From IMG/VR virus record IMGVR_UViG_3300045988_112031, positions 1 through 33,445 of that record: a DNA stretch of 33,445 nucleotides; one strand, 5' to 3'. Under the pieces are notes generated by a model, which worked only from the letters and a program-made list of their open reading frames with translations, ran no database searches and was not told the DNA's origin. Every line of letters starts with the position of its first letter. The first letter of the stretch is position 1. Shown one piece after another: positions 1-18,913 of this stretch. This stretch comes from a virus (taxonomy: Duplodnaviria; Heunggongvirae; Uroviricota; Caudoviricetes). A program made the translations under genes and the position numbers.

Positions 1-383
1 ATAATAAATCTTGTGCCTTTTGTCGGAGTGTATGTACCTGAGCTTTTAAACACCTGACACTGTATAAGCCTCCCGGAGCCATCTCCCAAACCAAGGTTTT
101 CGAGAGCCGTTTTCACCGTGCCGTCCGATTTGATATCACCAAACGGATTCTTGCGGCTTAACAGCAGCGCACGAAGCGCGGTAAGCAACTGGTCGTGCCG
201 CTCCTTCTCCAGGCTGGCACCGGAGGCCTCCACCACGCTGCAAAGCTCCTCCTGCAACATGTCAAAGTAGTCATCATCCAGATCGGTGGCAGGCGTGCCG
301 GTCTGGGGGTTACCACGGGTAAAACCGTTCTTACCCGCGCCGAACTTATCCTTCTGTGCGGTTTTCGTGTCTATACGATGCAT
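1..383 (-). CDS. tail fibre protein, N-terminal fragment (gene continues beyond window start)
   Basis: Hand translation of the minus strand from ATG at 383-381 is open to the window edge: [47 protein letters not shown]..., a recalled prophage side-tail-fibre N-terminus. Starts 3 nt after the stop of the upstream tail gene. Not in the ORF track because it has no stop inside the window. Confidence 0.6.
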
Positions 384-386
384 GGA

Positions 387-2435: not shown

Positions 2436-2980
2436 GCCTCCATCGCTTTATCAGGTTTGTCGGTGTTACTGCCCTGACCGTTCTCTCTGTGACGATGCCC
2501 GTTATAGGCAAGCCGCATCGCTGACATGGTGGTGCCGCCGGAGTCGCACAGGTCTTTCACCTGTCCGGTCACTTCCAGGTCCATTTCAAAACGTGCTTCA
2601 GGTGCATTGCGAAACGTAATCGTTTTACCTGCACCGTCCACCACGATCCCCGCCCGGGTCAGCGTCACGGACTGCCCCTGATCGTCATAGACAGCCACCT
2701 CCCCCGTCTGCAGCCCTTTCAGGCGGTAGCGCCGGTCTGACACCGTAACAACCACCGCATGAGAACGGTCGCCATCCGGAAACAACACCACCGCTTCCGC
2801 ACCGCTGTTTGCCCTTGCGGTAAAACCGTAGGGTTCAAGATGTTCAACCCCGGCTTTGGGTTCACCGGCAATCAGGGACACATCCACGGTCTGACATTTC
2901 GTGGCGGCACTGATGCTTTTCACCACGGCCCGCCCAATCAGGCCGAGGAGTTGTCGCTGCATGGCTTCAATCGTCCTCAT
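2432..2980 (-). CDS. baseplate assembly protein V / spike (Mu gp45-like)
   Basis: 182 aa; N-terminal region resembles gpV-type spike proteins; synteny with the Mu baseplate module. Confidence 0.55.
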   Translation of the reverse strand: MRTIEAMQRQLLGLIGRAVVKSISAATKCQTVDVSLIAGEPKAGVEHLEPYGFTARANSGAEAVVLFPDGDRSHAVVVTVSDRRYRLKGLQTGEVAVYDDQGQSVTLTRAGIVVDGAGKTITFRNAPEARFEMDLEVTGQVKDLCDSGGTTMSAMRLAYNGHRHRENGQGSNTDKPDKAMEA

Positions 2981-4059
2981 CAGAACGGGTCCTCCTGTAC
3001 TCTGGCTTTTTTCTTTTTCCGCGCGCCGGGGGCTTCGGGTTCAGGCAGATAAGCATCAGGTGGGCCGACACGGATTTCCGTCAGGGTTCCGTTCTGGTCC
3101 TGAGTAAACGTGACTTCCGAGACAAGCAGTTCGGTATTGTCGAAACCACAGACCGGATCGAAGACAATCACCCGCTGGTTGGGCTGCCACAGCGTACCGT
3201 TACCCTGTCGCCAGCCCTGCACCACATAGGTGGTTTCATCCGTCCGCGCCGCCCGTTGTCGGGCTTCAAAGTCAGCACGCGCAATACAGCCTGCCCCCGT
3301 GGCCTGCCCTGTCTGCCTGATATACATCGGACGGTAACGGGCAATAAATGCGTCCTCTGTGCGGGCCCGCAGCGCGGTGGTGGTGGCCTCACCGAAATCA
3401 TCGTCGTTTCCGGCACGCTGCCCCGCCACCTGGTAAACTGAAAACCGCTCCCGGATACTCTTCTCCGTATCACAGGAAAGGATATTTTCCCCAAGTACCA
3501 GCGCGGTATGTGCCCGCGTTGAGCCAATACCGCCAATCACCAGCCTGCCGTGCGGGTCGTCGTAAGCCAGCGCCTGCTGCTGACCGAGTATTTTGTTGAT
3601 TACCTCAATCACCGTTTCACCGTGATCAGACTGAACATCAGGAATAACACCCGACGGCGCACCGCTGTTCACCACCTCAATGCCGAAAGGCGCAGCAAGC
3701 GCCTGCGCAATCTGCACCAGCGAGCGTCCGTTAAACTGTGTCGGTTCGGCTGCACAGTCAATCAGGTCAGCCGTCAGACTACGTCCGGCAATACCGGTGC
3801 TGACCGAACGGGCATCGTACCGAACGGGCGTCGCCTCCACCCAGCCGGTGATCACCAGCTCATCACCAATCAGCACTTCCACTTTTGAACCGTTTTTAAT
3901 GCGCGGCTGAAGCGTGGTGATACCCTCATCTCCCGGCCACTGGCGAGTGATCTCCACACTGAAATCCCGCGCCAGCCGTTCAATACCGGCACCGATGCGC
4001 ACCGATGTCCAGCCATTCCACTCCCGGCCATTTACCCGTAGCGTGACGTTATCGTTCAT
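2980..4059 (-). CDS. baseplate hub / tail protein (Mu gp44, P-like)
   Basis: 359 aa directly downstream of the DNA-circulation gene, as in Mu (N then P); lysine-rich C-terminus. Confidence 0.5.
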   Translation of the reverse strand: MNDNVTLRVNGREWNGWTSVRIGAGIERLARDFSVEITRQWPGDEGITTLQPRIKNGSKVEVLIGDELVITGWVEATPVRYDARSVSTGIAGRSLTADLIDCAAEPTQFNGRSLVQIAQALAAPFGIEVVNSGAPSGVIPDVQSDHGETVIEVINKILGQQQALAYDDPHGRLVIGGIGSTRAHTALVLGENILSCDTEKSIRERFSVYQVAGQRAGNDDDFGEATTTALRARTEDAFIARYRPMYIRQTGQATGAGCIARADFEARQRAARTDETTYVVQGWRQGNGTLWQPNQRVIVFDPVCGFDNTELLVSEVTFTQDQNGTLTEIRVGPPDAYLPEPEAPGARKKKKARVQEDPF

Positions 4060-5390
4060 TGCACTGGCACCTTCAGAGGGATCACCGGCACAAAGCCGGG
4101 ATGCGTAATGGCATTACGCCGGATAATGTCCGCGTCACGCGCCGCGTTATCAAACCAGGTCGCCGCCAGCACCAGCGCGGGTAAAACCTCATCCGGCGTG
4201 CGCTGAATGATCCGTGCAGACTGTTCAAGGCGCGTGTTGATATCCGCATTCAGATCTGCTTTCACCCGGCGCAGCGCAAGAAACAGCGCATCACTGGTTG
4301 TACGGGACAACTCCTTATCAATTGCCGTATTCAGTGTGTCGCGAATGTCAGTCAGTTCTTCCCACGTCGGCAGGTCAACTGTGTTTTTCACCGCCGGTGC
4401 ATTGTTCAGTGCCGGATGCGTGACGGAAGGCCAGCCAGTGCTCTGCGCAGGTGTTGTTGCCTGCCCCACTGCGGCATTCTGCATCACCGCGGAAGTTGTT
4501 GGCGCAGGCAATCGGGTGACGGCATACGCCGCTTCGCTGATTGCGGTCGTACGAAGGGTGCTGGCAACCACGTTACGCTGCTGCGTAGCCGTGGCGGTGG
4601 TTTTACTGTCCGTTTTCCAGACGCCGCGCGGTTGCAGATCGCTGCCGAGGCTGACACCGGAAAGCGTTTTGATCATGGCGACCAGGTCGCTGGCGTTACC
4701 ATAAAGGCGTTTCCCGGTACGCCACATTTTCTGCACCTGCTCAACGAAATTTTTGCCTGACGATGGCGGCGGCAGAAGTACCGAGATATCCCCCTGCAAC
4801 AGCCTGGCGGCATCCGATACGGCAGAATCCACCACTTTCATCGCATCAGAAACATACCCAAGCATTGTGCTGGCATTACCGACGACGTCGTTCTGCACAA
4901 AATCTGCCACGCCATCGATACTGAAACTACTGAAACTGTCACTGATGCAGTCATCCAGTGCAGAACAGGATGACATCAGCGTCTGCGCCGTCGCCGCACC
5001 TGATGTGGGGTAAGAGAGTTCTCCCGCTTCGACAAACTTCAGGTCAAAGCGGACAATACGCCCTTCACTCTTCGATGTGCTGACCCGAACCTCTCCGTCA
5101 ACACAGACTTTCAGCTCACCGTAAGTCGGATGGACAAGCGTGCCGGGACCGGGTTTATTCAGCGCGTCAATCAGGCGATCGCGCTGGTCAAAGCAGTCAT
5201 CTCCCACCACATAAGCCGTGATGGACGGGCGGAAAGTGATTTTCCCCAGGTCTTCGGTATAGGGTTTGTCGCGGTTCGGGTATTCATGTGTTTCCACACG
5301 GCGACCGGTTCCCGCACTTTCTTCTTCAACCTTAAACGGCACACCTCGAAATGACGCATCCTGAAGCCTGTCTTTCCACGTCATATACAC
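4056..5390 (-). CDS. DNA circulation protein (Mu N / gp43-like)
   Basis: 444 aa; N-terminus WKDRLQDASFRGVPFKVEEESAGTGRRVETHEYPNRDKPYTEDLG matches the recalled signature of the Mu DNA-circulation N-terminal domain. Confidence 0.7.
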   Translation of the reverse strand: MYMTWKDRLQDASFRGVPFKVEEESAGTGRRVETHEYPNRDKPYTEDLGKITFRPSITAYVVGDDCFDQRDRLIDALNKPGPGTLVHPTYGELKVCVDGEVRVSTSKSEGRIVRFDLKFVEAGELSYPTSGAATAQTLMSSCSALDDCISDSFSSFSIDGVADFVQNDVVGNASTMLGYVSDAMKVVDSAVSDAARLLQGDISVLLPPPSSGKNFVEQVQKMWRTGKRLYGNASDLVAMIKTLSGVSLGSDLQPRGVWKTDSKTTATATQQRNVVASTLRTTAISEAAYAVTRLPAPTTSAVMQNAAVGQATTPAQSTGWPSVTHPALNNAPAVKNTVDLPTWEELTDIRDTLNTAIDKELSRTTSDALFLALRRVKADLNADINTRLEQSARIIQRTPDEVLPALVLAATWFDNAARDADIIRRNAITHPGFVPVIPLKVPVQ

Positions 5391-5396
5391 TCCGAA

Positions 5397-5425
5397 AATA
5401 AAAAAGCCACCTATTAGAAGGTGGC
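5397..5425 (-). terminator. intrinsic terminator downstream of the tail-operon moron
   Basis: Minus-strand reading: GCCACC-loop-GGTGGC hairpin followed by a run of T (plus strand shows the A-run then the hairpin). Lies between the moron stop and the DNA-circulation gene. Coordinates approximate. Confidence 0.6.
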
Positions 5426-5445
5426 CTTGTAATGAATTTTATTAA

Positions 5446-5976
5446 TTAGCGAGTCAGAAACAACGAATCTTTATACTTTTGCTGTTGTTCATTTAAATAC
5501 TTAGCTGTTTCATCGCTGGCAAATGGAAATATTACCGTATTTTTAGGCATGGTAATTTCTTTTTTGTCCAGCGTCAGAGTAAACATAGGAACATACTGAG
5601 CAGAGTAACGCACCGCAGAAACGAGCTCTAGTTTAGACTCTTCAATAACACTTAAATTATCCAGGCTAACTTTCTCTTCATCTTTTTTCTTTGACGCATT
5701 TAAAGTTTTTATTACTTTATTTAATTTCTCCTGAAAATCCTCCTTAAAGTTTTCAGGATTGCCGTCGACAACAAGAATCTGTTCACCCTGATTATCTGGA
5801 AAAATAATCTTTGCACTTATCAATTTATTTTCTTTATAAACATCACCAAGTTTTATGGCTCCTCCAGATAACTGAATAATATGTTCATCTTTAAAGGAGA
5901 TGTTGCCAGAGATTATGAGAGATGAAAAAATAGCCGCTGCTCCAAGAATTACACTTGCTGTGATATAGCCTTTCAT
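5446..5976 (-). CDS. moron-encoded membrane-anchored hypothetical protein (candidate superinfection exclusion protein)
   Basis: 176 aa; N-terminal hydrophobic segment MKGYITASVILGAAAIFSSLIISG (signal anchor or signal peptide) then a K/E-rich soluble domain; visibly AT-rich compared with flanking tail genes; followed by its own terminator. Confidence 0.6.
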   Translation of the reverse strand: MKGYITASVILGAAAIFSSLIISGNISFKDEHIIQLSGGAIKLGDVYKENKLISAKIIFPDNQGEQILVVDGNPENFKEDFQEKLNKVIKTLNASKKKDEEKVSLDNLSVIEESKLELVSAVRYSAQYVPMFTLTLDKKEITMPKNTVIFPFASDETAKYLNEQQQKYKDSLFLTR

Positions 5977-6067
5977 TTTTCGCCTATTAACATTTTTCTA
6001 AATGTGCATTAATTCTATCACTCTATTTATGACTTACAACCAGCAAAACCTGTGAGGGGAATCCTGG

Positions 6068-7900
6068 CTACCAAAATCGGGTATAGCCAACATCGTGATT
6101 TATATCAATGCCACTGGAGCGTGTTTCCGTAACCCGCATACCTGATGGCATATTTATAAATGATACCTTGATCTCACCATCAACTTTTGGCGCGGTAGCT
6201 TTATTAATCATGAAAGGATTCGGGCCTGTGGCACCGGAGGCGTTGTTTGCCTGAGCCGGCTCCACCTCCGGATAAGGAGTGTATCCCCGTGGCGGTATTC
6301 CCGTCCCATAAGCATCATAAGCACCCGCGCCCCACTGCGCCGAGTTAATGGCATCGACCGTGTCACCGGAACTGTCGGTAAACCATTCAATAATCGGCTT
6401 CAGCTTATCCCACATATCCTGAAACCACTTAACAACCGGTCCCCAGTTATTGATCACCATCCCCAGCGGCGACCAGGCAAAAACCTTCTTCAGAAGTTCC
6501 CAGCCAGCCTCAAAATAAGGACTAATGGTTTCCCAGAGTTTCTTAAAATAAGGTCCGACAACATCCCAGTTAGTGATAATTAATCCCGCAGCCAGGGCAA
6601 TCGCCGTCGCAATCATGCCAATCGGCGTCATCGACATGATCCTGCTGACGATACTGATGGCACTGCCCACGCCCATCAATCCCAGTTTCAGAATCGCAAG
6701 ACCGGCAGCAAGCCCGACGACGCCGCGAATAACCCGGGGATTTTCATCCGCAAACTTCGTGAATTTTTCCCCTAACTCCCCCAGCCATTGCGTGATATTT
6801 TTGGCGTCACCAGAAAATGCGCCGCCAATAGCCGCAAGGCCGTTAGTTGCGGTCCCCGTCATTGCCTCCCACAGGTTGGACAGCGTACCAAGCTGTGCCT
6901 GAACACGTTTATTCAGGCTGGCCTGTTTATTCATCTTCTGCTGGATCTGATCGTAGCCATCCTTTCCTTTATCGATCAGCGCATTGACCACCTGAAGGGT
7001 TTCGGCATCATCACCAAACATTGCCTTAAGTACACCAGTTCGTTTAACGTCGGTCAGTTTTCGCAGCTTTGCCAGTTGCCTGAACATGTTATCAAGACCG
7101 CCAAAACTCCCTTTGCCATCAGTAAAATCGAGCTGTACCCCGAGTTTCTGACGGGCCATGACTTTATTGACGTCCCTGATTTTCTTAACGCTTAATCCGG
7201 ACTGGATAACTTTTCGCAGGGCGTTACCTGCCGACTCCCCGTTCATCCCCATCTGATCCATCATGACGCTGATGGGGGCAAGGCTCTGTGCAGCCTGAAG
7301 ACCGTCCTTGTTCACCATCTTCAGAACAGAACTGGTTTTAGTGAAGAAGGACAACATGTTGGTATCGTCAACGCCCAGATAAAACGCCTTCTGGATAGTG
7401 TCGAACAGCCCCATCATGTCTTCTGACGCCGTTCCGGTAGCATCCTGCATCTTTGCAGCAAACTCAGCAGCCGCTTCCGGTGTTTTTTTCAGTTGTACCG
7501 CAAGATAAGCTGTCGCTTTACCCACACCGCCAAGAATGTTTTCTGCCGGGATCCCCTGACGCACCAGCATCTGCATCATGTTCTGGAAATCAGCCGTTGT
7601 ACCGGGTAGCTGGTTACCCAGACCAATAGCCAGTTTATTGATGTCCTGAAAGCTCTTTCCGACCTCACCGTTCGCATCCATCATGGCAACTTTCAGCCCG
7701 GTGGCGGCGTTTTCCTGATCGGCATAAGATTTCAGGGAAAGCGTCAGCCCCGCTGCCAGTCCGCCACCAAGCGCCAGCCCACCCTGTGACGCTTCTTCCG
7801 CCTGGCGTTTAAATCCCCGGATTTTCTTTTGCATTTTCGACAGCGCGGGAGAAAGCCTGTCGACACCGGTGATCAACGCCTTAAGCTCAAATTCAGCCAT
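6068..7900 (-). CDS. tail tape measure protein
   Basis: 610 aa; Ala/Gly-rich helical N-terminus, hydrophobic central segments, W-rich C-terminus; preceded by the chaperone gene pair with a frameshift site. Confidence 0.85.
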   Translation of the reverse strand: MAEFELKALITGVDRLSPALSKMQKKIRGFKRQAEEASQGGLALGGGLAAGLTLSLKSYADQENAATGLKVAMMDANGEVGKSFQDINKLAIGLGNQLPGTTADFQNMMQMLVRQGIPAENILGGVGKATAYLAVQLKKTPEAAAEFAAKMQDATGTASEDMMGLFDTIQKAFYLGVDDTNMLSFFTKTSSVLKMVNKDGLQAAQSLAPISVMMDQMGMNGESAGNALRKVIQSGLSVKKIRDVNKVMARQKLGVQLDFTDGKGSFGGLDNMFRQLAKLRKLTDVKRTGVLKAMFGDDAETLQVVNALIDKGKDGYDQIQQKMNKQASLNKRVQAQLGTLSNLWEAMTGTATNGLAAIGGAFSGDAKNITQWLGELGEKFTKFADENPRVIRGVVGLAAGLAILKLGLMGVGSAISIVSRIMSMTPIGMIATAIALAAGLIITNWDVVGPYFKKLWETISPYFEAGWELLKKVFAWSPLGMVINNWGPVVKWFQDMWDKLKPIIEWFTDSSGDTVDAINSAQWGAGAYDAYGTGIPPRGYTPYPEVEPAQANNASGATGPNPFMINKATAPKVDGEIKVSFINMPSGMRVTETRSSGIDINHDVGYTRFW

Positions 7901-8075
7901 GTGTGCGTTTCTCCTGCTCTATCCTGTTTGCCTGACTGACCAGCAAGGGAATTTCACTGATCGGCATATTCAGCAATTCGAAGGGATTAATGCGCCAGTA
8001 ACTGGCGCAGTCAAAGAAGCGATCAGTGAGGTATTCAGCCGTCAGGCCTGGAGGAAAAAACCGGCCACAAGCCAC
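7893..8075 (-). CDS. tail assembly chaperone, -1 frameshift extension (C-terminal part of the fusion product)
   Basis: ORF in the -1 frame relative to 8042-8311 and overlapping its 3' end; the overlap contains a T_TTT_TTC slippery heptamer; classic arrangement upstream of a tape measure gene. Confidence 0.5.
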   Translation of the reverse strand: MACGRFFPPGLTAEYLTDRFFDCASYWRINPFELLNMPISEIPLLVSQANRIEQEKRTHG

Positions 8076-8311
8076 GCCGCTGCATTCAGGTCTGCCGGAG
8101 ACATCTGGTCGACAGAGCTTTGCGGCACTTTCGCCAGCCGCACAATGTATTTCGACACCACATGCGCCAGAAGTCTGACTGACTCATCCTGATTCATCTG
8201 GTAGGGATACCCCAGCTCGCGGACATCCTTCCCGGTGGGCTCATCAAACTCCAGTACGGAGAGTGTCTCGCCATGAGCAGTAATCGGTTTCTTTAACTCA
8301 AGCTCTTTCAT
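8042..8311 (-). CDS. tail assembly chaperone (Mu gp41-like)
   Basis: 89 aa acidic protein between tail tube and tape measure; 3' end overlaps the frameshift extension ORF. Confidence 0.6.
   Translation of the reverse strand: MKELELKKPITAHGETLSVLEFDEPTGKDVRELGYPYQMNQDESVRLLAHVVSKYIVRLAKVPQSSVDQMSPADLNAAAWLVAGFFLQA
8054..8060 (-). other. candidate -1 programmed ribosomal frameshift slippery site (T TTT TTC on minus strand)
   Basis: Plus strand gaaaaaa; in the chaperone zero frame the codons read ggT TTT TTC; a -1 slip enters the frame of ORF 7893-8075 (..GRFFPPGLTAEYL..). Coordinates approximate. Confidence 0.5.
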
Positions 8312-8667
8312 TACTGGTAATCCCCTTCTTCACCGTGGAACTCAAGATCAACCGTGCCTTCTTCGGCATTATGGTTCGCTTCGCCGTGCAGCCATGCAGA
8401 CGACAGTACATAGACCTGACCGTTCGCCAGCTCGGCAGTGATTGTCATCTCATCAGACGAGGTGATTTTGCTCACAGGAAAATTCTTCGGCACCTTGAAG
8501 GTTCCTTTAACATAAGGCGCACGGTGAGTTTCCTTGCGGTCCACTGAACCGTCCAGGCCGATGATGTCATCATTGACCGTCCTGTTCATGGGCACCTCAA
8601 TGCCGCCGGTCAGCGATAGCTGCTGACCGTCAATTTTGAAATAACAGGTTCCCCCGATACGGGCCAT
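8311..8667 (-). CDS. tail tube protein (Mu M-like)
   Basis: 118 aa immediately downstream of the sheath gene; ATG overlaps the sheath stop (TAATG). Confidence 0.7.
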   Translation of the reverse strand: MARIGGTCYFKIDGQQLSLTGGIEVPMNRTVNDDIIGLDGSVDRKETHRAPYVKGTFKVPKNFPVSKITSSDEMTITAELANGQVYVLSSAWLHGEANHNAEEGTVDLEFHGEEGDYQ

Positions 8668-10163
8668 TATGCGGACTCCTCTGAATACTGAAGACGGAAC
8701 TGGTTAACCACGGCAAAGACACGCAACTGGTTAACATAGTCAGGCGGGAACAGCGTGTTCAGGCGGTTCGGTTCGCTGGCATCACGCTCCACAACCAGGT
8801 ACTGCTTGAACAGTTCGTAGTTTTCCACGATCCCCGCACGCTCAAGCTGACGGTAGGTTGCCAGCAGTTCCCCTTTGATCACCGCCGGGGTGACAATCGC
8901 CTGACCGGGACCAAAGCGGGTACCGTCGCTGGCAAGCTTGTGACGCCCGTACTTACTGGTAATGACGGATTTCAGTTTGCGCAGTACATACGCGCTGGTA
9001 TGCAGCGTCTCGCTGTCGAGGTAGCTGTTATCCGTAACCCCGTAAGCATTTTTCCTGTACGTGGTGACATCACGCTGAATGCGCAGCACCCCGCTTTCGA
9101 CATACGCCGTTGCCACGCCATGAGACAGCAGGGTCTGCTGCTCGGTCATCGTGAACCGTTTCCCCTTCGGCGCAGGCAGCATACCCACCAGCTCACCGGT
9201 CTGCGTGGGACGTGCCGGATCGTTGCGGATAAACACCGCTGCGCGGGCGGTACGGCTTGCCACCAGCTCGTCGGCAGGTGTCTGGGTTTCTTTTTCGTAC
9301 CCCGCCAGGGTAATGTGCTGCTGGTTAAACTGGTCACCTGCGGTCACCAGTTCTGACAGTGTGCCGGTCTTTGCCGTATACACATGACCATACAGCTGAC
9401 GCGCATAGCTCCAGCGACCGCTGGTATCGTTCATCTCGGTCACCAGCGTGTTAACGGAGGCCGTGTCGTTGAACGGCAGACCGATATAATCAAACGGCTC
9501 ATCCGCCATTGCAGCCACCGCGCCGGTGAGAACCGGAGCGCCCGTTCCGGCGGTACCCGTCGCCACAGCAATCTGTACGCCCGCTGGCAGCACTTCGCCA
9601 CCACCAAAGCCGTAGTAATTGAGGCTGACAGGAATTTCATTCCCGCAAAGCCCCTTATGACGCGCGGTCAGCGTGACCACGCCTGCCGAAGATGAAGCCG
9701 TAAACGGCAGGGTCGGAACGGCATTGATGGCATCCTGGATACTGCTGGCAATCATCGTGACGTTATCGCCGTTAGTCACCAGTGCCTGCACGCGGGTACG
9801 TCCCACATACACATTCACCGTGCCGGTTTCGGTTGCCGCCCCGGTCACCGTCAGCGTAACCGTTGCCGCCGCGCCTGTGGCTTCCGGAACGGCAATCACA
9901 TACAGCTCGCCAAACGGGTCAGTCTGGCGATAAGCCTCGACCATACGCGCCAGCTGACTTCCCGCACCACAAATCTGGCGTGCATAGTCTGCCGACGGCA
10001 TCAGCACCAGACTGTTGGCAACAATCTCTGCACCGTTATTGGCGTGACCAATCAGCAACGATGCCCCGCTGTCCTGTGCAGTATTCGCCGCCTGGTTATC
10101 CATTTCCGCATAAAACAGCGGAACCAGCGTATTCGACGGAATGGTGTTAAAGCTTATCGTCAT
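8667..10163 (-). CDS. tail sheath protein (Mu L-like)
   Basis: 498 aa, typical sheath size and position upstream of tube and chaperone. Confidence 0.8.
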   Translation of the reverse strand: MTISFNTIPSNTLVPLFYAEMDNQAANTAQDSGASLLIGHANNGAEIVANSLVLMPSADYARQICGAGSQLARMVEAYRQTDPFGELYVIAVPEATGAAATVTLTVTGAATETGTVNVYVGRTRVQALVTNGDNVTMIASSIQDAINAVPTLPFTASSSAGVVTLTARHKGLCGNEIPVSLNYYGFGGGEVLPAGVQIAVATGTAGTGAPVLTGAVAAMADEPFDYIGLPFNDTASVNTLVTEMNDTSGRWSYARQLYGHVYTAKTGTLSELVTAGDQFNQQHITLAGYEKETQTPADELVASRTARAAVFIRNDPARPTQTGELVGMLPAPKGKRFTMTEQQTLLSHGVATAYVESGVLRIQRDVTTYRKNAYGVTDNSYLDSETLHTSAYVLRKLKSVITSKYGRHKLASDGTRFGPGQAIVTPAVIKGELLATYRQLERAGIVENYELFKQYLVVERDASEPNRLNTLFPPDYVNQLRVFAVVNQFRLQYSEESA

Positions 10164-10317
10164 CGGTGTTCACCTTTTTATTCACGCGCCGGATATCACC
10201 CGCTGCTTCACGGCGCAGCCAGTAGTTGTTCTCGTCAACATTTCGCCCTTCGGTGGGCAAAAGGTCACCGCGGGCAGGGTCAGGCACTGACCGCCCTTTA
10301 ACAGGTTTCACAAACAT
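10147..10317 (-). CDS. small DUF2635-like protein upstream of the tail sheath
   Basis: Hand-translated 56-aa ORF below the track size cut-off: MFVKPVKGRSVPDPARGDLLPTEGRNVDENNYWLRREAAGDIRRVNKKVNTDDDKL; the MFVKPxxG..VxDP start matches my recollection of a small family found just upstream of sheath genes in Mu-like tails. Confidence 0.45.
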   Translation of the reverse strand: MFVKPVKGRSVPDPARGDLLPTEGRNVDENNYWLRREAAGDIRRVNKKVNTDDDKL

Positions 10318-10325
10318 GAAGATTC

Positions 10326-10886
10326 TCAGGAAGGAAGGGTTATTTCGGTGTGATGTTCGATATCGCCGTCAGGCTCGTTACCGGGATCGAGATAATCAAC
10401 ATCAATCGCCAGCGTTCGCAGTTCATCCAGACTGTTCAGCTCATCCTGCTGGCGGGTATCGTCTTCGGTCAGCTCGCTGATGACCGAAAAATCGAACTGA
10501 TAAATCAGCTCATGACGATTCAGATCCAGCAGCGTGCCGCCGTCATAGGTAATCGGGTTACCGCACGCTTCCGGGTTCCAGCCCAGCAGGGCCTTAAAGA
10601 GCATCTGCCGGACATCGTCCACCACATCATACGAAGCAAACTGACCGCGCTCATCACGCCCGTTACTCAGTATGACAACCACGGAGAAGCCCTCTTTCAG
10701 CTCCTGCCAGTAGTCGGTCTGGCTTTTGTTTTCTCCCGGAGAATCATCACCCGGTACAACATATGCCGCCGGGAGTTTCAGCTTTCCGACCTCCGGCAGA
10801 TTTTTGAACTGGGCCGCGCCTGCAACCCGGTTTTCAAAATACGGACAGCGGGCACGCAGTGCAGCAATAACAGGCGTCAGTTTCAT
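10326..10886 (-). CDS. virion / tail-associated protein (Mu gp37/gp38-region-like)
   Basis: 186 aa acidic protein between the head-completion genes and the sheath; call by synteny only. Confidence 0.35.
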   Translation of the reverse strand: MKLTPVIAALRARCPYFENRVAGAAQFKNLPEVGKLKLPAAYVVPGDDSPGENKSQTDYWQELKEGFSVVVILSNGRDERGQFASYDVVDDVRQMLFKALLGWNPEACGNPITYDGGTLLDLNRHELIYQFDFSVISELTEDDTRQQDELNSLDELRTLAIDVDYLDPGNEPDGDIEHHTEITLPS

Positions 10887-11389
10887 CTGTGTCGTCGCTC
10901 CGGCTTCAGTGATTTACGCAATTCCCGCGCCAGAAAATAGCGTGTCCAACTGCGGTTCTTTTCAAGCGTTTCCACCATGAAGTTATTACGTGGAGCCAGT
11001 CGCCAGCCGCTGCCACCGGATGCACCACGATGATGGCTGCGACGACGCTTTGCCCCTCGCCTCACGCCATAGAACAAAAAAGCCGGATAAAAATCACCGG
11101 TGATACGGCGGTTTCCCTCTCCATTACGCTGGTTAGGGGCTATACGTGCCATAAAACCAGGGCGATGTTTACTGGCTCTGGGTACCATGTAACCAATCGA
11201 ACGAGCCAGGCGTCCGGTCTGATAACCGGGGTTTTCACCCGGTGCCGACCGCGCACGGCGCATCACCAGCCGACGGGCATCACGCATATGACGCTGACCA
11301 ATCGTGACAAACGCCCGCCGGACACGGGCGCGGTTAAAGCGCATCTCCGCGGGCTGCTGAAAATCAACGTGCAAAAAGGAAGTCGTCAT
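10883..11389 (-). CDS. virion morphogenesis protein (Mu G-like), arginine-rich
   Basis: 168 aa, strongly basic; position between head-tail joining protein and tail genes. Confidence 0.4.
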   Translation of the reverse strand: MTTSFLHVDFQQPAEMRFNRARVRRAFVTIGQRHMRDARRLVMRRARSAPGENPGYQTGRLARSIGYMVPRASKHRPGFMARIAPNQRNGEGNRRITGDFYPAFLFYGVRRGAKRRRSHHRGASGGSGWRLAPRNNFMVETLEKNRSWTRYFLARELRKSLKPERRHR

Positions 11390-11774
11390 TGTTGCCTCCG
11401 TGACTCTGCCTACATTCGCCCAGCTCCGTACACTCCAACAGCAGAAAGCGCCGCGCCCCGTTCAGATCGCGCTGACGTTTCACCCGGTACACACTGTCAC
11501 CGCAGACCACCTCATAATCAGCGGTGATCCCCCGGCGGTAGCGAATGGTGATGTAATGGGTGATGGCGTCTCCGGTCTGCGCGGTTTCCTGCCAGGTGGT
11601 GGCACTGGTCTGGATAACCTTCGCCCATGCCCGGAACGCAACCGGGTATTGAGGCTCCACGCCAAAGTTATCCGCGGGCATATCCACCCGCTGGCGGATC
11701 AGGACGCGTTTATTCAGCTCGCCTGGGTCAGGCAGAATGTAGGTTGCGCTGGTCTGCGCCTGACGAATTTTCAT
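11364..11774 (-). CDS. head-tail joining / head closure protein
   Basis: 136 aa; ..WAKVIQTSATTWQETAQTGDAITHYITIRYRRGI..VYRV..LLLECTE.. resembles the recalled head-tail joining family; follows the connector gene. Confidence 0.55.
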   Translation of the reverse strand: MKIRQAQTSATYILPDPGELNKRVLIRQRVDMPADNFGVEPQYPVAFRAWAKVIQTSATTWQETAQTGDAITHYITIRYRRGITADYEVVCGDSVYRVKRQRDLNGARRFLLLECTELGECRQSHGGNNDDFLFAR

Positions 11775-12094
11775 AGTGGTATAAGGCGATAAGGAGCAAC
11801 CAACCAGTTAAAGCTCATTGGCAACTCCATTTTCTCAACGTCTGTAACCGTTGAGCGGTTTTCGTAGAAATGGCTGACAAGTAGCAGGAGCGCCAGCTTC
11901 ACATCATCAGATATCACAAGCCCATCAGGATCATCCGCAGGCCTGTCATCTGCGGTTGCATACAACGTACGGTTAAGGAAGTTTTCCGTCCGACTCTGAG
12001 CGGCCTTCCCAAGTAGTTCAAGCAACTCATCTTCATCAGAGAAATCATCATCCAGACGAAGCTGAAGCTTAATCTCTTCCATTTTTAACAGCAT
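11771..12094 (-). CDS. head-tail connector protein (gp6-like)
   Basis: Track ORF 11771-12139; preferred start is the internal ATG (MLLKMEEIKLQLRLDDD..) preceded by AGGAGG; the KLQLRLD motif is typical of gp6-type connector proteins. Confidence 0.55.
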   Translation of the reverse strand: MLLKMEEIKLQLRLDDDFSDEDELLELLGKAAQSRTENFLNRTLYATADDRPADDPDGLVISDDVKLALLLLVSHFYENRSTVTDVEKMELPMSFNWLVAPYRLIPL

Positions 12095-12172
12095 AAAACC
12101 TCCTGTGCCCACCAGAACGCGGGCACAAAAAAACCGCATTACGCGGCGTGCTGTATTACGTAAAAAGACTAA

Positions 12173-13402
12173 TCAACCACCAACGCTACCTTTCCCCACC
12201 AGCGCTTTAATGGCAGAGGTGTCTTCCAGGATACAGTCAAAACGATGGAAGGCCAGAAAACCGGTCTGATCATATTCCGCGTAACGCTCAACCAGACGTT
12301 TAAGAATCATGTATCGCACACGACGGATAATGAAGCGATCAAAGTCACCACAGAACATGAATTTTTTACCCGCCCCGATATCATCAATTTCCTGATCAAT
12401 GACATACGGTACATTCAACACTGAAGCAGGTGCCACACCAACAATATCCGGCAACCATAAAGGGCGTCCCTGACCGTCTTCCATCTCACTGATCAGTTTC
12501 AGCGTATTATCGTTAAACGCCAGGCGGAATTTCGGTCCGCGACGATATGCAGGATCAATGCTGTGTTTCAGAGCCAGAATTTCCTGCCACTTCACCGCAT
12601 TTGCCGCGGCAGTCTGTGTTGTGCCGGTCACTGATGCTGCCAGCCCTTTGGGTTGTTTAGGCGTACCAGCCCCCGTCCCCTGAATCAGATAACGGGCTTC
12701 ACCACGACCAATACGTTCAGCAATGCGACGGGCAAGATAAGCTTCCATATCGATCGCACTGTCCTGCAGCAACTCATTAGACACACGAATTATTTTCGAT
12801 GTCATTTTGAGCGCCCCAAGGCTTCCCATACCGAAATCGGTGTCTTCTTCACCGGCTTCTTCATTTTCGCCCAGCAGAACACCAACTTCGGAAGTACCAT
12901 CAGCTGTTGCCCACTCCATAGTGCGACCGTCAGAAGTGGTAAGAATCTGCGCCACACTGGCGATGCCACCGTAGGATTTCATCTTCTCAACAACTTTCGC
13001 CAGGAATGTTTCTGGTACGGTATATCCGCCCTTTTCATCCTGAGCTACGCCCTGGGCACGAAGTTCACGCAACGCCTTTCGTTCTTCTGATGTCAGCTCA
13101 CTGGCACCGTGACGCATCCACTTATCAAAAACCTGAGCTCGTTTCTCATCCTGTTGTGGATTGTTTTCCGGATCAAGATTCTGACGCTGCTCTTCCTCAT
13201 TGCTTTCAATGTACGCCTGATCCTGACGACGTAGTTCTTCTTCGCGTGCAATTCGTTCATCAAGAGCTTCCAGTTCGGATTTTGCTTTGTTCCACTCAGT
13301 GCGCTGCTCTTCCGTCCATGCGTTATCACCAATTTTTTCATTCAGGGCGCGCATGTCAGTTGCGATAGTATTACGTTTCTGTTTCAGTTCATGCAGTTTC
13401 AT
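12173..13402 (-). CDS. major capsid protein, HK97 family (with N-terminal scaffold-like coiled coil)
   Basis: 409 aa; charged coiled-coil N-terminus then capsid fold region; follows the prohead protease as in HK97. Confidence 0.85.
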   Translation of the reverse strand: MKLHELKQKRNTIATDMRALNEKIGDNAWTEEQRTEWNKAKSELEALDERIAREEELRRQDQAYIESNEEEQRQNLDPENNPQQDEKRAQVFDKWMRHGASELTSEERKALRELRAQGVAQDEKGGYTVPETFLAKVVEKMKSYGGIASVAQILTTSDGRTMEWATADGTSEVGVLLGENEEAGEEDTDFGMGSLGALKMTSKIIRVSNELLQDSAIDMEAYLARRIAERIGRGEARYLIQGTGAGTPKQPKGLAASVTGTTQTAAANAVKWQEILALKHSIDPAYRRGPKFRLAFNDNTLKLISEMEDGQGRPLWLPDIVGVAPASVLNVPYVIDQEIDDIGAGKKFMFCGDFDRFIIRRVRYMILKRLVERYAEYDQTGFLAFHRFDCILEDTSAIKALVGKGSVGG

Positions 13403-13412
13403 GATGTTTCCT

Positions 13413-14015
13413 TTACGCGTTAAGAAGGGTCAGGACGCGTTCACGCGCCATACGTTGATTAATGGCTTTCTGTAGCGCGCCGCTGTTGCGCGCCTCCTGC
13501 CATGCTTTCATGGAGCGAACAGCCGAGTCAGCCTCCTGATAGGCAGGATATGTCACAGGACTTACATCCAGCAGACGGGAAAAGCGGGTTATCTCGCGAA
13601 TAACAACCCCGTCCTCATCCTGATACCACTCCTCGCCGTCACGGGCGACACGGAAAGCAAAAGATGACTGGTTAATATCTCCACGTTGCATCGGGGCCAG
13701 CACCAGATCACGAATGGTCTGTGTCTCCGGAGCCTGGATGTCATAGCGCAATCCGCGCTCATCAACTGAAAGATTCAGCGTGCCTGCTGCACTACGCCCA
13801 AGAATAAAATTAGGATCGTGGTTAAACAGTGCGCGTACATCATCACCAAGCACATCGTCAAAAGCGCCGGGCCGGATGATTTCGCGGAATGAACCAAATA
13901 TCAGCTCAGAACGACAGTCAAACACCGATCCATAACCGATAATGTGCGCAGGGTTATCGTCATGCCGCTCAGCACGCACCTCACCGCTGTAACAACGGAT
14001 TTCACGGTCATTCAT
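13413..14015 (-). CDS. prohead protease (HK97 gp4 family)
   Basis: Track ORF 13413-14072; likely start at the internal Met (MNDREIRCYSGEV..) preceded by GAGGGA; between portal and capsid. Confidence 0.75.
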   Translation of the reverse strand: MNDREIRCYSGEVRAERHDDNPAHIIGYGSVFDCRSELIFGSFREIIRPGAFDDVLGDDVRALFNHDPNFILGRSAAGTLNLSVDERGLRYDIQAPETQTIRDLVLAPMQRGDINQSSFAFRVARDGEEWYQDEDGVVIREITRFSRLLDVSPVTYPAYQEADSAVRSMKAWQEARNSGALQKAINQRMARERVLTLLNA

Positions 14016-15234
14016 TGGTTTTTCCCTCATCATTTTTTGGGGGCTTAAAATCTCCTGCCGGGTTAGCAGCATTCACGCTTACCAGCATCTCATCCAGCCC
14101 TTCAACCGGATTCATATCCTCGAATGCGCGGGCCTCATTACGGCTCATCCATCCATCGGTAATAGCGAAGTGATAGAATTGCGCGCGCTCCTGCGGAGTT
14201 CCGCGTAAAAGCCCCGTCAGATTGAACCTGACGTAATACCCGGCGGCTAACTCAGCGCGGGTAAACAAGCGACGGTTAAGCTCCTGCTCCCAGTTCGTCA
14301 CCCACGGCATCATCGTGTAGCGGACAAACTGAATCGCCTGCGCAGAAATATTGGAGAAGGTGGCTTTTTCGAGGTCATTAATCATGTGCGCAGGAATATT
14401 GAAAATACCGGCAATCATTGAACGGTTCAGTTTCATCATGTCAATGATCTGAGCGTCAACTGGCGACACAGTCAGTGCCTTGTAATCCAGATCGGCTGGC
14501 AGCAGCATGGTTTTGTTTTCCTGGCTGCGTAACGCCTGCGATGCCTTCTGCCACTGATCTTTAAGCCAGCCCCAACTGTCCTTATTGAGTCCGCTTTTAA
14601 CGGATACTATCCCCGCCGGACGGGCATTACCGCTGAAGAAGCTTTCTGTGTATTTCTGACCGCTCATCCCCATGCCTATTGTTTCGGCATGTTGCATAAT
14701 CGGACTCAGCCCCATCTTCTGATTATTACCCAGCGCACGGATGTGGATCATATCGTCGGGGCTGATCGCAAACGCCCCATATTCGTTGTACAAACCGTAG
14801 GTGTATCGGCCACCAGTATTCATCAGCGTCGTTTCCCACGGCATACAGCAATCCAGGGATATGACTTCACCGCGACGATTACGTTTCACCCAGGTATACC
14901 CATTCCCCCAGCCAAGGATGTGACGTTGCTTCAGTTCGCGCCATTTGTAACTGGTTTGCCAGGTATTGGGCTCATCATGAACCAGATAAAACGCCGGATG
15001 ATCGCGTGCGGGCTCAACCTTCCCATTGTGCCTGCGCATAACATGCAACGGCATCTGGGCAAGGCTGGAAGACAGGACATAGATACAGGAATACACCGCA
15101 GCCAGTTTCATCGCAGTTTCAGGACTGACATAAACGTCTGCCCGGAACAGCCCATCAGTATCAACGGCATCCCCGGTTATCGGGGTGGAAGGATTCTCCA
15201 GTGATTTACTTCTGAACAGAGCATCAAGCAGCAC
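14008..15234 (-). CDS. portal protein, HK97 family
   Basis: 408 aa downstream of terminase large subunit; GTG start with AGGGGG Shine-Dalgarno. Confidence 0.85.
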   Translation of the reverse strand: MLLDALFRSKSLENPSTPITGDAVDTDGLFRADVYVSPETAMKLAAVYSCIYVLSSSLAQMPLHVMRRHNGKVEPARDHPAFYLVHDEPNTWQTSYKWRELKQRHILGWGNGYTWVKRNRRGEVISLDCCMPWETTLMNTGGRYTYGLYNEYGAFAISPDDMIHIRALGNNQKMGLSPIMQHAETIGMGMSGQKYTESFFSGNARPAGIVSVKSGLNKDSWGWLKDQWQKASQALRSQENKTMLLPADLDYKALTVSPVDAQIIDMMKLNRSMIAGIFNIPAHMINDLEKATFSNISAQAIQFVRYTMMPWVTNWEQELNRRLFTRAELAAGYYVRFNLTGLLRGTPQERAQFYHFAITDGWMSRNEARAFEDMNPVEGLDEMLVSVNAANPAGDFKPPKNDEGKTNE

Positions 15235-15385
15235 GCGTCCCCCTTCTGGCCATAGCCAGTGCGCCCACCAGCAGTAAACCGCCGGACAGCATCAGAGCCG
15301 GAGCCATACCAAACTGCAGGTAAAACCCGCACGTAAGCAGGCCAAAACCAGCCAGCCCGATAACATCAGCAATTAGTGATTTCAT
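15224..15385 (-). CDS. small hydrophobic protein (two predicted TM helices), unannotated
   Basis: Hand-translated 53-aa [56 protein letters not shown]; its ATG overlaps the TerL stop (ATGA) and its 3' end overlaps the portal start. Confidence 0.3.
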
Positions 15386-17115
15386 AGAATTAAGAGAGCA
15401 TCGTCCGGATCAAGAGATGAGAGGAAATCGTCGGGTTCTTTGAGCATTGCCCGACCGATCGCCATAATCAGTGCAACCGCACCATCGATTTTGTTTTCCG
15501 CCTGCTCCTTGACAGGCTTCACCACATCATCGTTACCCGGAATGGTTTTGCCGACCACGTTGCCGATACACCAGGTCATGATGGGATTGCCGTCATGATG
15601 AAAGCGCCCCGATTCAATCGCCGCTTCCAGCTCTTTCATCGGATCGGACATGTTGGTGTAGTTCTGAATGATGGTGATGGGGTTCAGGTCTTCATCAGCA
15701 AGGTCATGCGACAGCCCGGTCGCCCCGAAGGGGTCGATGGGTGACTCACTGACCGGGCTGATTTTGTTCGCCGCTTTGGCCTCCTCGAGGATGTAGCGAT
15801 AATCCACCTCCGCACCAGCGGTAACAGTCAGAACGCCCATTTCCACCCATTTCTGAAAGCGTTCGGCTGTCCGGCGATCTTCATTTTTCTCGACGCTGTA
15901 CACCGTGTCATACGGTACCCAGAAACGCGGGGCCACACTGTAGTAATGCGTTTTACCGTCAATCTCGCGGGTATAAAGTCGCGCCATGCTGTTCATATCC
16001 AGCTTACGCGCCAGGTCAAAGGCCAGAATGCACGGCTGCCCCTCGAACTGCTCAAGGGTCAGTGATTTATCCTCGCAGCTCTGCCAGCTCACCAGGTTGA
16101 AATACGCCGAACGCGCCGACACCCAGATATTGAGGTGTTTTGTTTTAAAGACGTTTGCCAGACGGGCGTTATTTTTCGCACGCTGCTGCTGACTTAACAA
16201 AAATTCGCGATAAACCGACACGCCAATATTTGGATTGGCTTTTTCCAGCACCTGCGGGTCGGTCCAGTCGTCACCTTCATCAATGGTATAGATGATCCCG
16301 AACAGTTCATCGTTGGGTACCGAACCGTTGAGCATCTCGATAACTTCCCGCCGCTTGTCGTAGCACGGCCCCTCAATGTTGTACCCGGCGGTGGTGATGG
16401 CCCACATCAGTGGCTGACGTCGCGCCCCCATCCCGGTAAGCATCGTGGTATAAAGCGCATCGGTGGCGTGCTCGTGATATTCATCCACCACCGCACAGTG
16501 GGGTGATGAACCATCACCAGGGTTACCGATCAGCGGTTCAAACCGCGCACCATCCTCCGGACGGTTCATGTTTGAGGCGTTAACCTCAATCCCGAACGCT
16601 TCCGTCAGCATGGGTGTGCGTTTACACATCAGTCGTGCCGGACGAAAGACTTCCCATGCCTGTTTCTCCGTCGTGGCACCGGAATACACTTCCGCGCCGA
16701 ACTCGTTATCACAGGCAAAACAATACAGGGCAACACCGGCAGAGATTGCCGATTTGCCGTTCTTACGGGGGATTTCGGTATACACCTCCCGGAAGCGGCG
16801 CAGCCGGGAGCCTTTATTGACCCAGCCAAACGCGCAGCAGATCACAAAGAGCTGCCACGGCTCCAGCGTGATGGGCATCCGTTTGAATGCCCACTCACCC
16901 TTGGTGTGCGGCAACAGCTGAATAAATTTCGCGGCCCGTTCAGCCAAGTCCTTGTCGAAGCGGTAACGAAACGACTTACTTTTTTCCGCCATCAGGTCAT
17001 CAAGATGGCGCTGGCAGGCCTGAATCACAAACTGGCAGGCCACAATCTTTCCGCGCACGACATCACGGGCATACTGATTGGCTGCATTTACGTTGGGGTA
17101 AGATTTCCGGCTCAT
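15382..17115 (-). CDS. terL: terminase large subunit
   Basis: 577 aa; Walker A-like [11 protein letters not shown]; follows the small subunit with a 4-nt overlap. Confidence 0.9.
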
Positions 17116-17606
17116 GATTCGATAATTTTCAGAAACGGGTTAGTGGCTTTCTTCTGCCCCGCCAGGCCAATCAGACGCTGGCGGCTGCTGGGGTCGAGTC
17201 CGAGCATTGCCCCCGTGCTGCTCATCTCGGACTCCTGTTCTTTCTTGGCGGTCAGCTCCGGATTTTTGACCATACCGCCCATTGCACCGGTGATGGTGTT
17301 GCCCTGGCTGGCAATATTTTTCACGGCACGTCGCCAGAACTCATAGGCAACGCACCACCGCTCAAGCACCGCGAGGTCAGTCACGCACAGCAGGCCCTGA
17401 CCGCAGAGTTCTTTGGTTGTCAGTAGCCACATGATCGTGGCGAGAGGGAGATTTTCTTCTGCGAACCACTCCGGTGGCTCAACGCCTTTGATGGGCGTAA
17501 AAACAGGTTCATCTTTGTTCAGGGCTCGCTTGCCGGGGTTTCCGGCCAGCGCCTTGCGCGCCGTTGGCTTGGGGCGACGCCCGGAACGCCCCGCCGTTCC
17601 AGCCAT
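17112..17606 (-). CDS. terS: terminase small subunit (P27 / HK97-like family)
   Basis: Track ORF 17112-17615 (GTG start); an ATG three codons in has a well-spaced AGGAG Shine-Dalgarno; basic N-terminus; directly upstream of TerL. Confidence 0.75.
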
Positions 17607-17639
17607 ATGCGGCACTCCTGGTTAAATTTCATTTTTCGC

Positions 17640-17731
17640 GGGTATAAAAAAACGATGGGGCGGGCAGTCCGGAAGACGTCAGGTCACAGGGATTTGACCC
17701 GCCCCTCCCCTCAGACAGTTGAGAATTATTA
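17640..17731. other. GC-rich structured intergenic segment between HNH and terS: candidate cos region and/or terminator
   Basis: 8-bp GC inverted repeat GGGGCGGG / CCCGCCCC enclosing about 33 bp, followed on the minus strand by a run of T; G-rich tracts. In HK97-like phages cos lies between the HNH gene and terS. Confidence 0.35.
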
Positions 17732-18082
17732 TCACTTTAGCCGTTCACGGGCCGTCTTCGCCTTGTGGCACGGCCAGCACAGACTCTGCAGATTACTGTC
17801 GGCATCAGTGCCGCCATGTGCTTTAGGGATGATGTGGTCAACGGTTTTCGCCTCACGCACCACACCAGCACGCAGACATAACTGACACAGGCCTTTGTCA
17901 CGCTTCAATATGCGCGCGCGGATACTGTCCCACTTCGAACCGTAGCCGCGCTGATGACGGGATTGTCCAGGTTTGTATTGCTTCCAGCCTTCGCTTTTGT
18001 GGCTTTCGCAATAGCCTGACGGGTCAGTGGTGGTATGGCGGCAGCCGCGAACACGGCAGGCTTTTGGGGTTCGTTGCGGAAT
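17732..18082 (-). CDS. HNH endonuclease (terminase-associated), no canonical start codon
   Basis: Hand translation: ..PQRTPKACRVRGCRHTTTDPSGYCESHKSEGWKQYKPGQSRHQRGYGSKWDSIRARILKRDKGLCQLCLRAGVVREAKTVDHIIPKAHGGTDADSNLQSLCWPCHKAKTARERLK*. HNH motif is DHIIPKAHGG..N..LCWPCH. A perfect AGGAGG sits 6 nt before an in-frame ATT; there is no ATG/GTG upstream (first canonical start is an internal TTG giving 58 aa), so the ORF track missed it. Confidence 0.65.
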   Translation of the reverse strand: MPQRTPKACRVRGCRHTTTDPSGYCESHKSEGWKQYKPGQSRHQRGYGSKWDSIRARILKRDKGLCQLCLRAGVVREAKTVDHIIPKAHGGTDADSNLQSLCWPCHKAKTARERLK

Positions 18083-18239
18083 GTTATTCCTCCTGTGTAA
18101 TTACTGATTTCATTAATGTAATATATTGTATTGTAAGAAAAATTTGTTTTTTTACAGTGATATATTTTTATAGAAGACTATTCGCTCAAGGTGCATTAAG
18201 ATTAATCTCACCCCCACGAAGAACGTTAAGGATAAGAAG

Positions 18240-18578
18240 ATGATAAAAATGATTAACTGTACTGCTTCCAATTGTGGCGTTGGATACGTTTTTGGCAAAG
18301 GCGTTGATGCTGAGCTAATCAATAGTCACGCAAGAGCATGTAAAATCGGCTTTGTGCAAGCAGGGAATGAAAAAGAATGGTCAATACTGTTGGAAAAGTT
18401 GCTAACCAAAAAAGCTGATTTTGAGTCTTTACTGACTGTATGTGAAACTGTTAATTCAGAAGATAAAAAAAACGTCATATCCAAGTCCAATTTATTTGAA
18501 TATTTATCTCATTTTGCAAATGCTACAACTGTTTATACCTTTCTCGAGGGGTTAGTGAACTCTCTTTTAGCCAAATAA
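18240..18578 (+). CDS. moron-encoded hypothetical protein (112 aa), opposite strand to the late operon
   Basis: AT-rich cassette; AAGGA Shine-Dalgarno about 9 nt upstream; AT-rich upstream region; followed by a hairpin terminator. No family recognised. Confidence 0.55.
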   Translation: MIKMINCTASNCGVGYVFGKGVDAELINSHARACKIGFVQAGNEKEWSILLEKLLTKKADFESLLTVCETVNSEDKKNVISKSNLFEYLSHFANATTVYTFLEGLVNSLLAK

Positions 18579-18620
18579 TCACCATTTAGAATACAACTGG
18601 GTTTAAAAATAATTATAATT

Positions 18621-18676
18621 AAAAAGCTATACACCTACTTAAAAGAGTCATTATATTTGTGTATAGCTCGTTTTTC
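18621..18676. terminator. bidirectional hairpin terminator between the convergent moron and spanin genes
   Basis: 10-bp inverted repeat AGCTATACAC / GTGTATAGCT with a roughly 24-nt loop, flanked by an A-run 5' and a T-run 3' (serves both strands). Coordinates approximate. Confidence 0.5.
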
Positions 18677-18913
18677 TTCATGCCTTCTAATATGAGACTT
18701 ATCTAAATTACAACTCCCTAACGCGGACAACAGTTTTACATTCAAATCCAAACTTTCACCATACGTCAGCGGATTGGGTATAAAAGGTACTGGAGTATCA
18801 GAAGTCAGGCTGGTTGGCAGTAGTACCGCCGGTGTATTCACGTAAACTGTCCGCGTACTTCCGCAACCGGTCAGCAGCGGTAGCAGGCACAGGACGTGAA
18901 GCGCAATCATCAT
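18635..18913 (-). CDS. o-spanin (Rz1-like outer-membrane lipoprotein), overlapping Rz in the +1 frame
   Basis: Track ORF 18635-18979; the internal Met gives MMIALHVLCLLPLLTGC with an LTGC lipobox, then a Pro-rich region; begins inside Rz and runs about 160 nt past the Rz stop into the AT-rich insert. Confidence 0.5.
   Translation of the reverse strand: MMIALHVLCLLPLLTGCGSTRTVYVNTPAVLLPTSLTSDTPVPFIPNPLTYGESLDLNVKLLSALGSCNLDKSHIRRHEEKRAIHKYNDSFK

Follow-up and report, generated by a model that had tools for sequence, protein, structure and literature searches.

The efficiency of an AUU start codon varies with its context, with IF3, with ppGpp and with temperature. In E. coli, initiation at AUU reaches about 1-2% of that at AUG, and two genes, infC and pcnB, naturally start at AUU (bioRxiv 10.1101/063800). 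The group-1 phage HNH enzymes are defined by a zinc-ribbon motif, [CxxxxC] ... [CxxH], and the combination of a zinc ribbon with an HNH core is the architecture of the HNH enzymes encoded beside cos and terminase genes (Xu and Gupta, PMC3592412). The HNH protein of phage HK97, gp74, promotes cos cleavage by terminase (Kala et al. 2014, via PMC9410871). A need for the HNH protein in cos cleavage and packaging is known for HK97 gp74 only (PMC9410871), and its extension to the SfV group and to the allele described below is an analogy. A literature search for ATT start codons in phage genes, or on the HNH gene described below, found nothing specific.

Here we describe an HNH gene with ATT at its start position in an SfV-like E. 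coli prophage, which combines an HK97-type head and terminase with a Mu-type contractile tail. The gene lies in a stretch of 33,445 nucleotides, analysed as a whole and referred to as the window (IMG/VR record IMGVR_UViG_3300045988_112031, positions 1 to 33,445). The encoded protein, we conclude, is orthologous to SfV orf53 and ST64B sb56 and typical of the zinc-ribbon HNH proteins associated with terminase; the AUU start is its sole oddity. The gene is probably a natural AUU-initiated gene, judging from its sequence and that of its relatives.

The HNH gene, its neighbours and its start site

Read from high to low window coordinates, the late region runs from the holins through a GH19 endolysin, Rz/Rz1 and an opposite-strand gene of 112 aa to the HNH gene. 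It continues with the cos region, terS, terL, portal, S78 protease, HK97-type capsid and the Mu-like tail. Positions 82-17673 of the window match positions 1-16972 of phage SfV at 97.5% identity, and all 20 SfV packaging, head and tail proteins (20/20) are encoded in full, uninterrupted by gaps or stops and 97-100% identical. The SfV genome end thus maps to 17673, which is 59 nt beyond the HNH stop at 17732. The features of this part of the window are as follows.

15382..17115, minus strand: terminase large subunit gene terL (SfV orf2 by tblastn, 577/577 aa, 97.9%; PHROG 9)
17112..17606, minus strand: terminase small subunit gene terS, P27 family (SfV orf1 by tblastn, 164/164 aa, 97.6%; PHROG 83)
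17657..17705, no strand: cos region, with the SfV genome end at 17673, flanked by the two arms of a perfect 8-nt inverted repeat, GGGGCGGG/CCCGCCCC
17732..18082, minus strand: HNH endonuclease coding sequence with ATT start, 116 codons and TGA stop, from translation
17734-17732, minus strand: TGA stop codon of the HNH gene, after 116 sense codons
17747..17887, minus strand: HNH catalytic domain, C66xxC69, D82-H83, N97, C102xxC105-H106 (PF01844; residues from translation)
17906..17908, minus strand: internal in-frame TTG, codon 59 of the HNH gene, the sole canonical start available; rejected
17999..18058, minus strand: N-terminal zinc-ribbon motif C9-x4-C14 ... C25-x2-H28, read from the translation
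18080..18082, minus strand: ATT, proposed AUU initiation codon, homologue of the orthologues' ATG in alignments
18083..18088, minus strand: spacer AATAAC between AGGAGG and ATT
18089..18094, minus strand: perfect Shine-Dalgarno (SD) sequence AGGAGG, 6 nt 5' of ATT

The deposited ends of phage records in the SfV group differ (17731, 17673, 17655 or 17622 in window coordinates), and therefore not every deposited terminus is a true cos end. In the portal gene, the GTG annotated as the SfV start (424-aa protein) reads GCG in the window (15234-15282, minus strand). The true portal start is likely the downstream GTG at 15234, which is preceded by GGGGGA and gives 408 aa; the SfV portal annotation is therefore probably 16 codons too long. 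Further from cos, the same prophage carries a second HNH-like gene (22496-23491, minus strand; about 330 aa, matching DUF968 and, weakly, HNHc_6) upstream of a Q-like antiterminator. Between the antiterminator and the holins lies a 213-aa ORF without a family match (20616-21257, minus strand). This appears to be a second variable cargo position, since related prophages hold a different 85-aa ORF in the same slot.

The HNH protein scored 60.1 bits against PF01844 in the Pfam profile search (cut-off 21.4, E = 2.3e-16, spanning aa 66-112), 35.8 bits against PF14279 (HNH_5; cut-off 27.5) and E = 5e-45 against PHROG 144, 'HNH endonuclease'. All catalytic and zinc residues of the pattern CxxC ... 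D-H ... N ... CxxC-H are present and align with those of the nearest solved structure, PDB 5h0m, which aligns to the HNH protein from its own Met1-Pro2 onwards, N-terminus included. A first-pass annotation, made from the sequence alone, had named the gene a terminase-associated HNH endonuclease of an HK97-like phage and considered this cos-adjacent gene relevant to packaging. Both the profile matches and the position of the gene, which adjoins the SfV end, terS, terL and the HK97-type head genes, agree with this. The stretch 18082-17732 (minus strand) thus encodes an HNH endonuclease with a zinc ribbon and a beta-beta-alpha-metal HNH domain, to which we ascribe, by analogy, an accessory role in packaging at cos.

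On the minus strand, the HNH start reads ...TAA TTA CAC AGG AGG AAT AAC ATT CCG CAA CGA..., with an in-frame TAA six codons 5' of the ATT. The arrangement of AGGAGG, 6 nt and ATT was exactly as the first-pass annotation had described it (18094-18080), as was the open frame of about 116 codons; its description gave no strand, and the gene is on the minus strand. It was also right that ATG, GTG and TTG are missing near the 5' end: the frame holds none of them ahead of the TTG at codon 59. The mechanical ORF list gives merely a 58-aa ORF for the gene because this TTG is the first canonical start. As a motif, AGGAGG-N6-ATT is statistically unremarkable, being found at least once in 21 of 100 shuffles of the window. 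It gains its meaning because the ATT is the exact homologue of the start codon ATG of the orthologues.

The orthologous coding sequences of phages SfV, SfI, ST64B, SKA5 and vB_EcoM-720R4 are 351 nt long and start with ATG-CCN-CCN (MPPRTPKACRVRGC...), and the same start is found in the E. coli prophages YD786, T309.Ta3 and FDAARGOS_1059. The ATT of the window aligns codon for codon with the ATG of the five isolated phages and of E. coli prophages, and the window protein differs from its ATG-allele orthologues at 2-10 residues. A pattern scan of IMG/VR contigs returned at least 120 with ATG at this codon and three with a non-ATG ATH codon, all of them ATT. The comparison with orthologues suggested earlier thus gives ATG as the equivalent codon in all of these phages and in at least 120 of the contigs. 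A different conserved start site, which the first-pass annotation had allowed for, was not seen among the orthologues: they begin at exactly the codon equivalent to ATT. One deposited annotation departs from this pattern, as phage vB_EcoM-720R4 (ON470603.1) has the full 116-codon ORF with a normal ATG at 393-743 and is annotated with only a 61-aa 'homing endonuclease' (558-743). This short entry is an annotation truncation, unrelated to loss of a start codon.

ATG alleles with CAA (Gln) as codon 3 also exist (ATG-CCA-CAA). Over the first 53 nt, just two differences separate the ATT allele from such an allele: the G-to-T change of the start codon and one synonymous site. Since all orthologues have ATG at this position and ATG-CCA-CAA alleles exist, the alignments support an origin of ATT from ATG by a single G-to-T change.

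Distribution and background of the ATT allele

The homology between the window and the ATG-type phages breaks exactly at the HNH start codon. Upstream of it the window carries an AT-rich module (18083-18700 including the 112-aa gene, which we refer to as the moron), with a GC content of 30-40% in comparison to about 55% in the flanks.

18083..18239, no strand: AT-rich intergenic region from moron to HNH gene, marked by the GC drop and the alignment break
18084..18113, minus strand: mini-ORF of nine codons, MKSVITQEE and stop, with ATG at 18113; it contains the SD, and its TAA ends 1 nt before ATT
18240..18578, plus strand: moron gene, 112 aa, divergent, without a known family and invariably linked to the ATT allele

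Inserted between Rz/Rz1 and the HNH gene, the moron runs on the opposite strand. PHROG and PADLOC gave no match to its protein and Pfam only a sub-threshold one, and the exact protein occurs on 523 public NCBI contigs. An ATTAC unit (18118-18122, within 18114-18126 on the minus strand) lies just 5' of the mini-ORF ATG, about 25 nt before the SD; the window has a single copy, and the copy number among genomes ranges from one to three. Being single-copy in the window, it was not flagged by Tandem Repeats Finder, and the repeat is apparent solely from comparison between genomes. An A7/A8 run polymorphism lies nearby, at about 18154. A scan for promoters and terminators around the HNH gene gave nothing above shuffle expectation and no site within 18083-18239.

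The HNH gene was present in 1224 complete E. coli genome records, of which 12 (12/1224, about 1% of the family) carry the AT-rich module. The sources of these 12 genomes include dog, chicken, pig, cattle, egret, human, wastewater and meat, from several continents. All 10 of the genomes fetched (10/10) have the identical AGGAGGAATAAC-ATT-CCG-CAA; the remaining two genomes belong to sister isolates that share the chicken-meat source of GF8. The same string of SD, spacer and ATT was found in three IMG/VR contigs and in 10 distinct NCBI draft-genome contexts, and the exact HNH protein of the window (Met form) is held by NCBI from 78 contig blocks. In RefSeq, a non-pseudo 351-nt 'HNH endonuclease' coding sequence starts from ATT in 11 E. 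coli genomes (WP_024188390.1, WP_024256831.1), a call made by homology-based annotation.

Among the 24 sampled copies of the allele, which represent 13 haplotypes, AGGAGG-AATAAC-ATT is invariant. No ATG version was found on the AT-rich upstream background, nor was any other non-ATG variant of the start codon. The HNH ORF is intact in 23 of the 24 and interrupted by a large deletion in strain BE2-5. Gene terL is open in nine of ten ATT-allele prophage contexts. The ATT prophages carry four different CI-type repressors and two different portal-protease-capsid modules, and most of their morphogenesis regions are complete. We conclude that the ATT is an inherited, shared haplotype of heteroimmune mosaic prophages from different hosts and continents. 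Of the recent point mutation from ATG to ATT considered in the first-pass annotation, the single G-to-T step from ATG therefore stands; that it is recent or private does not, as the allele is a shared haplotype.

Three sampled ATT copies lie in deleted prophages (BE2-5 and the sampled loci L145 and L148). The BE2-5 deletion (E. coli NZ_CP032986.1, 1659-2318 of sampled locus L006) removes the entire packaging, head and tail-shaft region and leaves codons 1-77 of the HNH gene fused in frame with a gpV-like baseplate protein. RefSeq starts this chimera at the same ATT, as a 'phage baseplate assembly protein domain-containing protein'.

All four ATT prophages checked for their position are integrated at thrW next to proA. 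As this is the usual site of the phage group, it is silent on independent lysogenisation. Neither the ATT allele nor the moron and upstream module was matched among 50,697 phage records, of which only 25 carry the gene, and the allele had no match in JGI metagenome contigs or GTDB species representatives. Absence from the isolated phages and from the GTDB and JGI sets is uninformative because the prevalence of the allele is only about 1%.

Translation from AUU and alternative readings

We think it fairly likely, from the sequence signals set out below, that the HNH gene is initiated at AUU with reduced efficiency and is still functional. An ancestral ATG would have turned into ATT (G-to-T) in one phage sub-lineage, at the point where the AT-rich module of moron and intergenic region meets the HNH gene. 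Initiator tRNA would start translation at the AUU, driven by the perfect AGGAGG 6 nt upstream and by an unstructured A/U-rich leader, and full-length HNH protein would be made at a level well below that of the AUG allele. A small amount of HNH protein from the late mRNA may then suffice to help terminase cleave cos. We infer the use of the AUU, the expression level and its sufficiency for packaging, and the prophage has probably kept its ability to package DNA.

The signals around the start codon are consistent with this reading. The duplex between SD and anti-SD has a predicted free energy of -10.3 kcal/mol in the ATT allele and is the strongest of 37 upstream contexts (141 copies), the ATG alleles ranging from -0.7 to -8.8 kcal/mol and typically from -4 to -6. 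The HNH leader (-50 to +50) is no more structured than its shuffles (z = 0.57), with a nearly open centroid structure.

Across the 13 haplotypes, the 157-nt intergenic region contains six SNPs, an A-run indel and (ATTAC)1-3, and the next 164 nt, from the SD to codon 45, contain no change. This SNP-free run is suggestive only, as about 3-6 SNPs would be expected there at the neutral densities of the neighbouring DNA and its boundary was set after the data had been seen. Within the coding sequence, the first 137 nt are identical across the ATT alleles. Diversity from nt 138 on is attributed to recombination because it is clustered and matches ATG alleles. The ratio pN/pS within the ATT alleles is 0.04-0.2, similar to that of the ATG alleles. 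Given the invariant 5' part and the recombinational 3' diversity, a low value is no proof that purifying selection has acted since the origin of the ATT. Therefore, we rejected dN/dS as functional proof: it cannot date selection to the time after the ATT arose.

Some observations speak against AUU initiation with retained function. Initiation that is about 50-100-fold lower might fall short of function, all four ATT prophages checked share the thrW site, and some copies lie in deleted prophages. The module and the ATT allele are also missing from the phage records, JGI metagenome contigs and GTDB species representatives searched.

The strongest alternative, which we regard as a real though clearly lesser possibility, is that the ATT could be a loss-of-function or severely hypomorphic start mutation, leaving too little HNH protein for cos cleavage or packaging. 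Cryptic prophages would then persist, spreading vertically and by recombination, and the ORF would appear intact only since the mutation is young and the 3' part has been refreshed by recombination. The lack of diversity in the first 137 nt, and the match of the 3' variation to ATG alleles, are what such a history predicts. The low efficiency of AUU relative to AUG (bioRxiv 10.1101/063800), the shared thrW site, the three copies in deleted prophages and an AF46 prophage with a truncated Rz and a frameshifted gene fit it as well. So does the lack of an isolated phage with the ATT allele in the 50,697 records, although a prevalence of 12/1224 and a mere 25 phage records with the gene make this absence uninformative.

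Against loss of function, the allele is common (78 contig blocks with the exact protein, 523 with the linked moron protein), and it is found with four repressor types and two head modules in prophages whose morphogenesis regions are mostly complete. All 20 SfV structural genes are intact in the window. The SD and the ATT show neither decay nor reversion in 24 copies despite a variable intergenic neighbour, and the strongest SD of the family would be unexpected in front of a dead gene. We therefore favour AUU initiation with retained function over a null or hypomorphic allele.

AUU initiation with retained function could further be read as a selected throttle and not as a tolerated defect, which we consider rather doubtful. 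The moron module would have brought the perfect SD and the open leader, and the change from ATG to ATT would have brought HNH output back to a safe level. Output would thereby have been made dependent on initiation fidelity (IF3, ppGpp, temperature), possibly aided by termination and reinitiation at the mini-ORF. If true, this would be a third natural AUU-initiated E. coli gene and the first start-codon-level control of a phage packaging nuclease.

The mini-ORF (18113-18084) might also account for the start by itself. Ribosomes that translate it would re-initiate at the AUU, termination-reinitiation coupling would relax the stringency of start-codon choice, and full-length protein would be made. 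Its ATG, frame and stop are kept in 13 of 13 haplotypes, with one K2E change, and its stop lies 1 nt from ATT. On the other side, it lacks an SD of its own, a nine-codon ORF in AT-rich DNA easily arises by chance, and its conservation may mirror the young haplotype. We therefore rate such coupling as improbable.

Still less probable is a 58-aa protein from the TTG at codon 59, which would consist of the HNH catalytic core without the zinc ribbon. In its favour, no other canonical start is in frame, some pipelines call the TTG (MCH9921586.1, 58 aa on a 205-bp contig), and the 61-aa ORF of the phage record mentioned above is annotated although that record has an ATG. However, such a protein would lack the N-terminal zinc ribbon, a conserved element of the family that the solved homologue 5h0m also has. 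We rejected the internal start: no SD precedes it, and the codon reads CTG in three of five ATT-allele haplotypes, the most common one included. Finally, a sequencing or assembly error, which the first-pass annotation had offered as one option, can be dismissed, as nothing but the rarity of ATT starts speaks for it and the identical 15-nt string is found in 23 other, independently sequenced and assembled copies.

Significance and relation to known systems

Gene finders limited to ATG, GTG and TTG will truncate or miss the HNH gene, and prophages may wrongly be scored as lacking a terminase HNH partner; RefSeq already annotates the ATT-start gene correctly. The ATT allele provides a natural test of how far a perfect SD compensates for AUU, in a gene without which cos packaging should fail. 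If ATT prophages are inducible, the HNH gene would join the two confirmed cases in E. coli as a third AUU-initiated gene, and packaging would require very little HNH protein. General understanding changes little, as both non-canonical starts and HNH proteins associated with terminase are familiar.

As in infC and pcnB, AUU replaces AUG at an otherwise normal ribosome-binding site, so that low efficiency and sensitivity to IF3, ppGpp and temperature are expected. The HNH gene shares with them an AUU at the start position, an SD at functional spacing and the lack of an alternative canonical start. Both infC and pcnB have a conserved AUU whose use and regulation have been proven. The AUU of the HNH gene, in contrast, belongs to a minority allele (about 1% of the family), its use is putative, and the ATT is kept within one haplotype only and not among the orthologues.

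The genes of SfV (orf53/HNH), SfI, SfII, SfIV, ST64B (sb56) and SKA5 are true orthologues of 351 nt with 86-96% nucleotide identity, located at the right genome end beside cos. They differ from the gene of the window in their ATG-CCN-CCN start behind weaker SDs. In SfV and vB_EcoM-720R4 the HNH gene directly follows Rz/Rz1, and none of the five isolated phages (SfV, SfI, ST64B, SKA5, vB_EcoM-720R4) carries the 112-aa moron.

Like the HK97 gp74-type HNH proteins of cos phages, the protein has 116 aa, a beta-beta-alpha-metal HNH domain with [CxxC]2 and an N-terminal zinc ribbon. Its gene likewise lies immediately upstream of cos, terS and terL and of an HK97-type portal, protease and capsid. It differs from the HK97 gp74-type terminase-associated HNH genes only in its ATT start and its foreign AT-rich upstream module.
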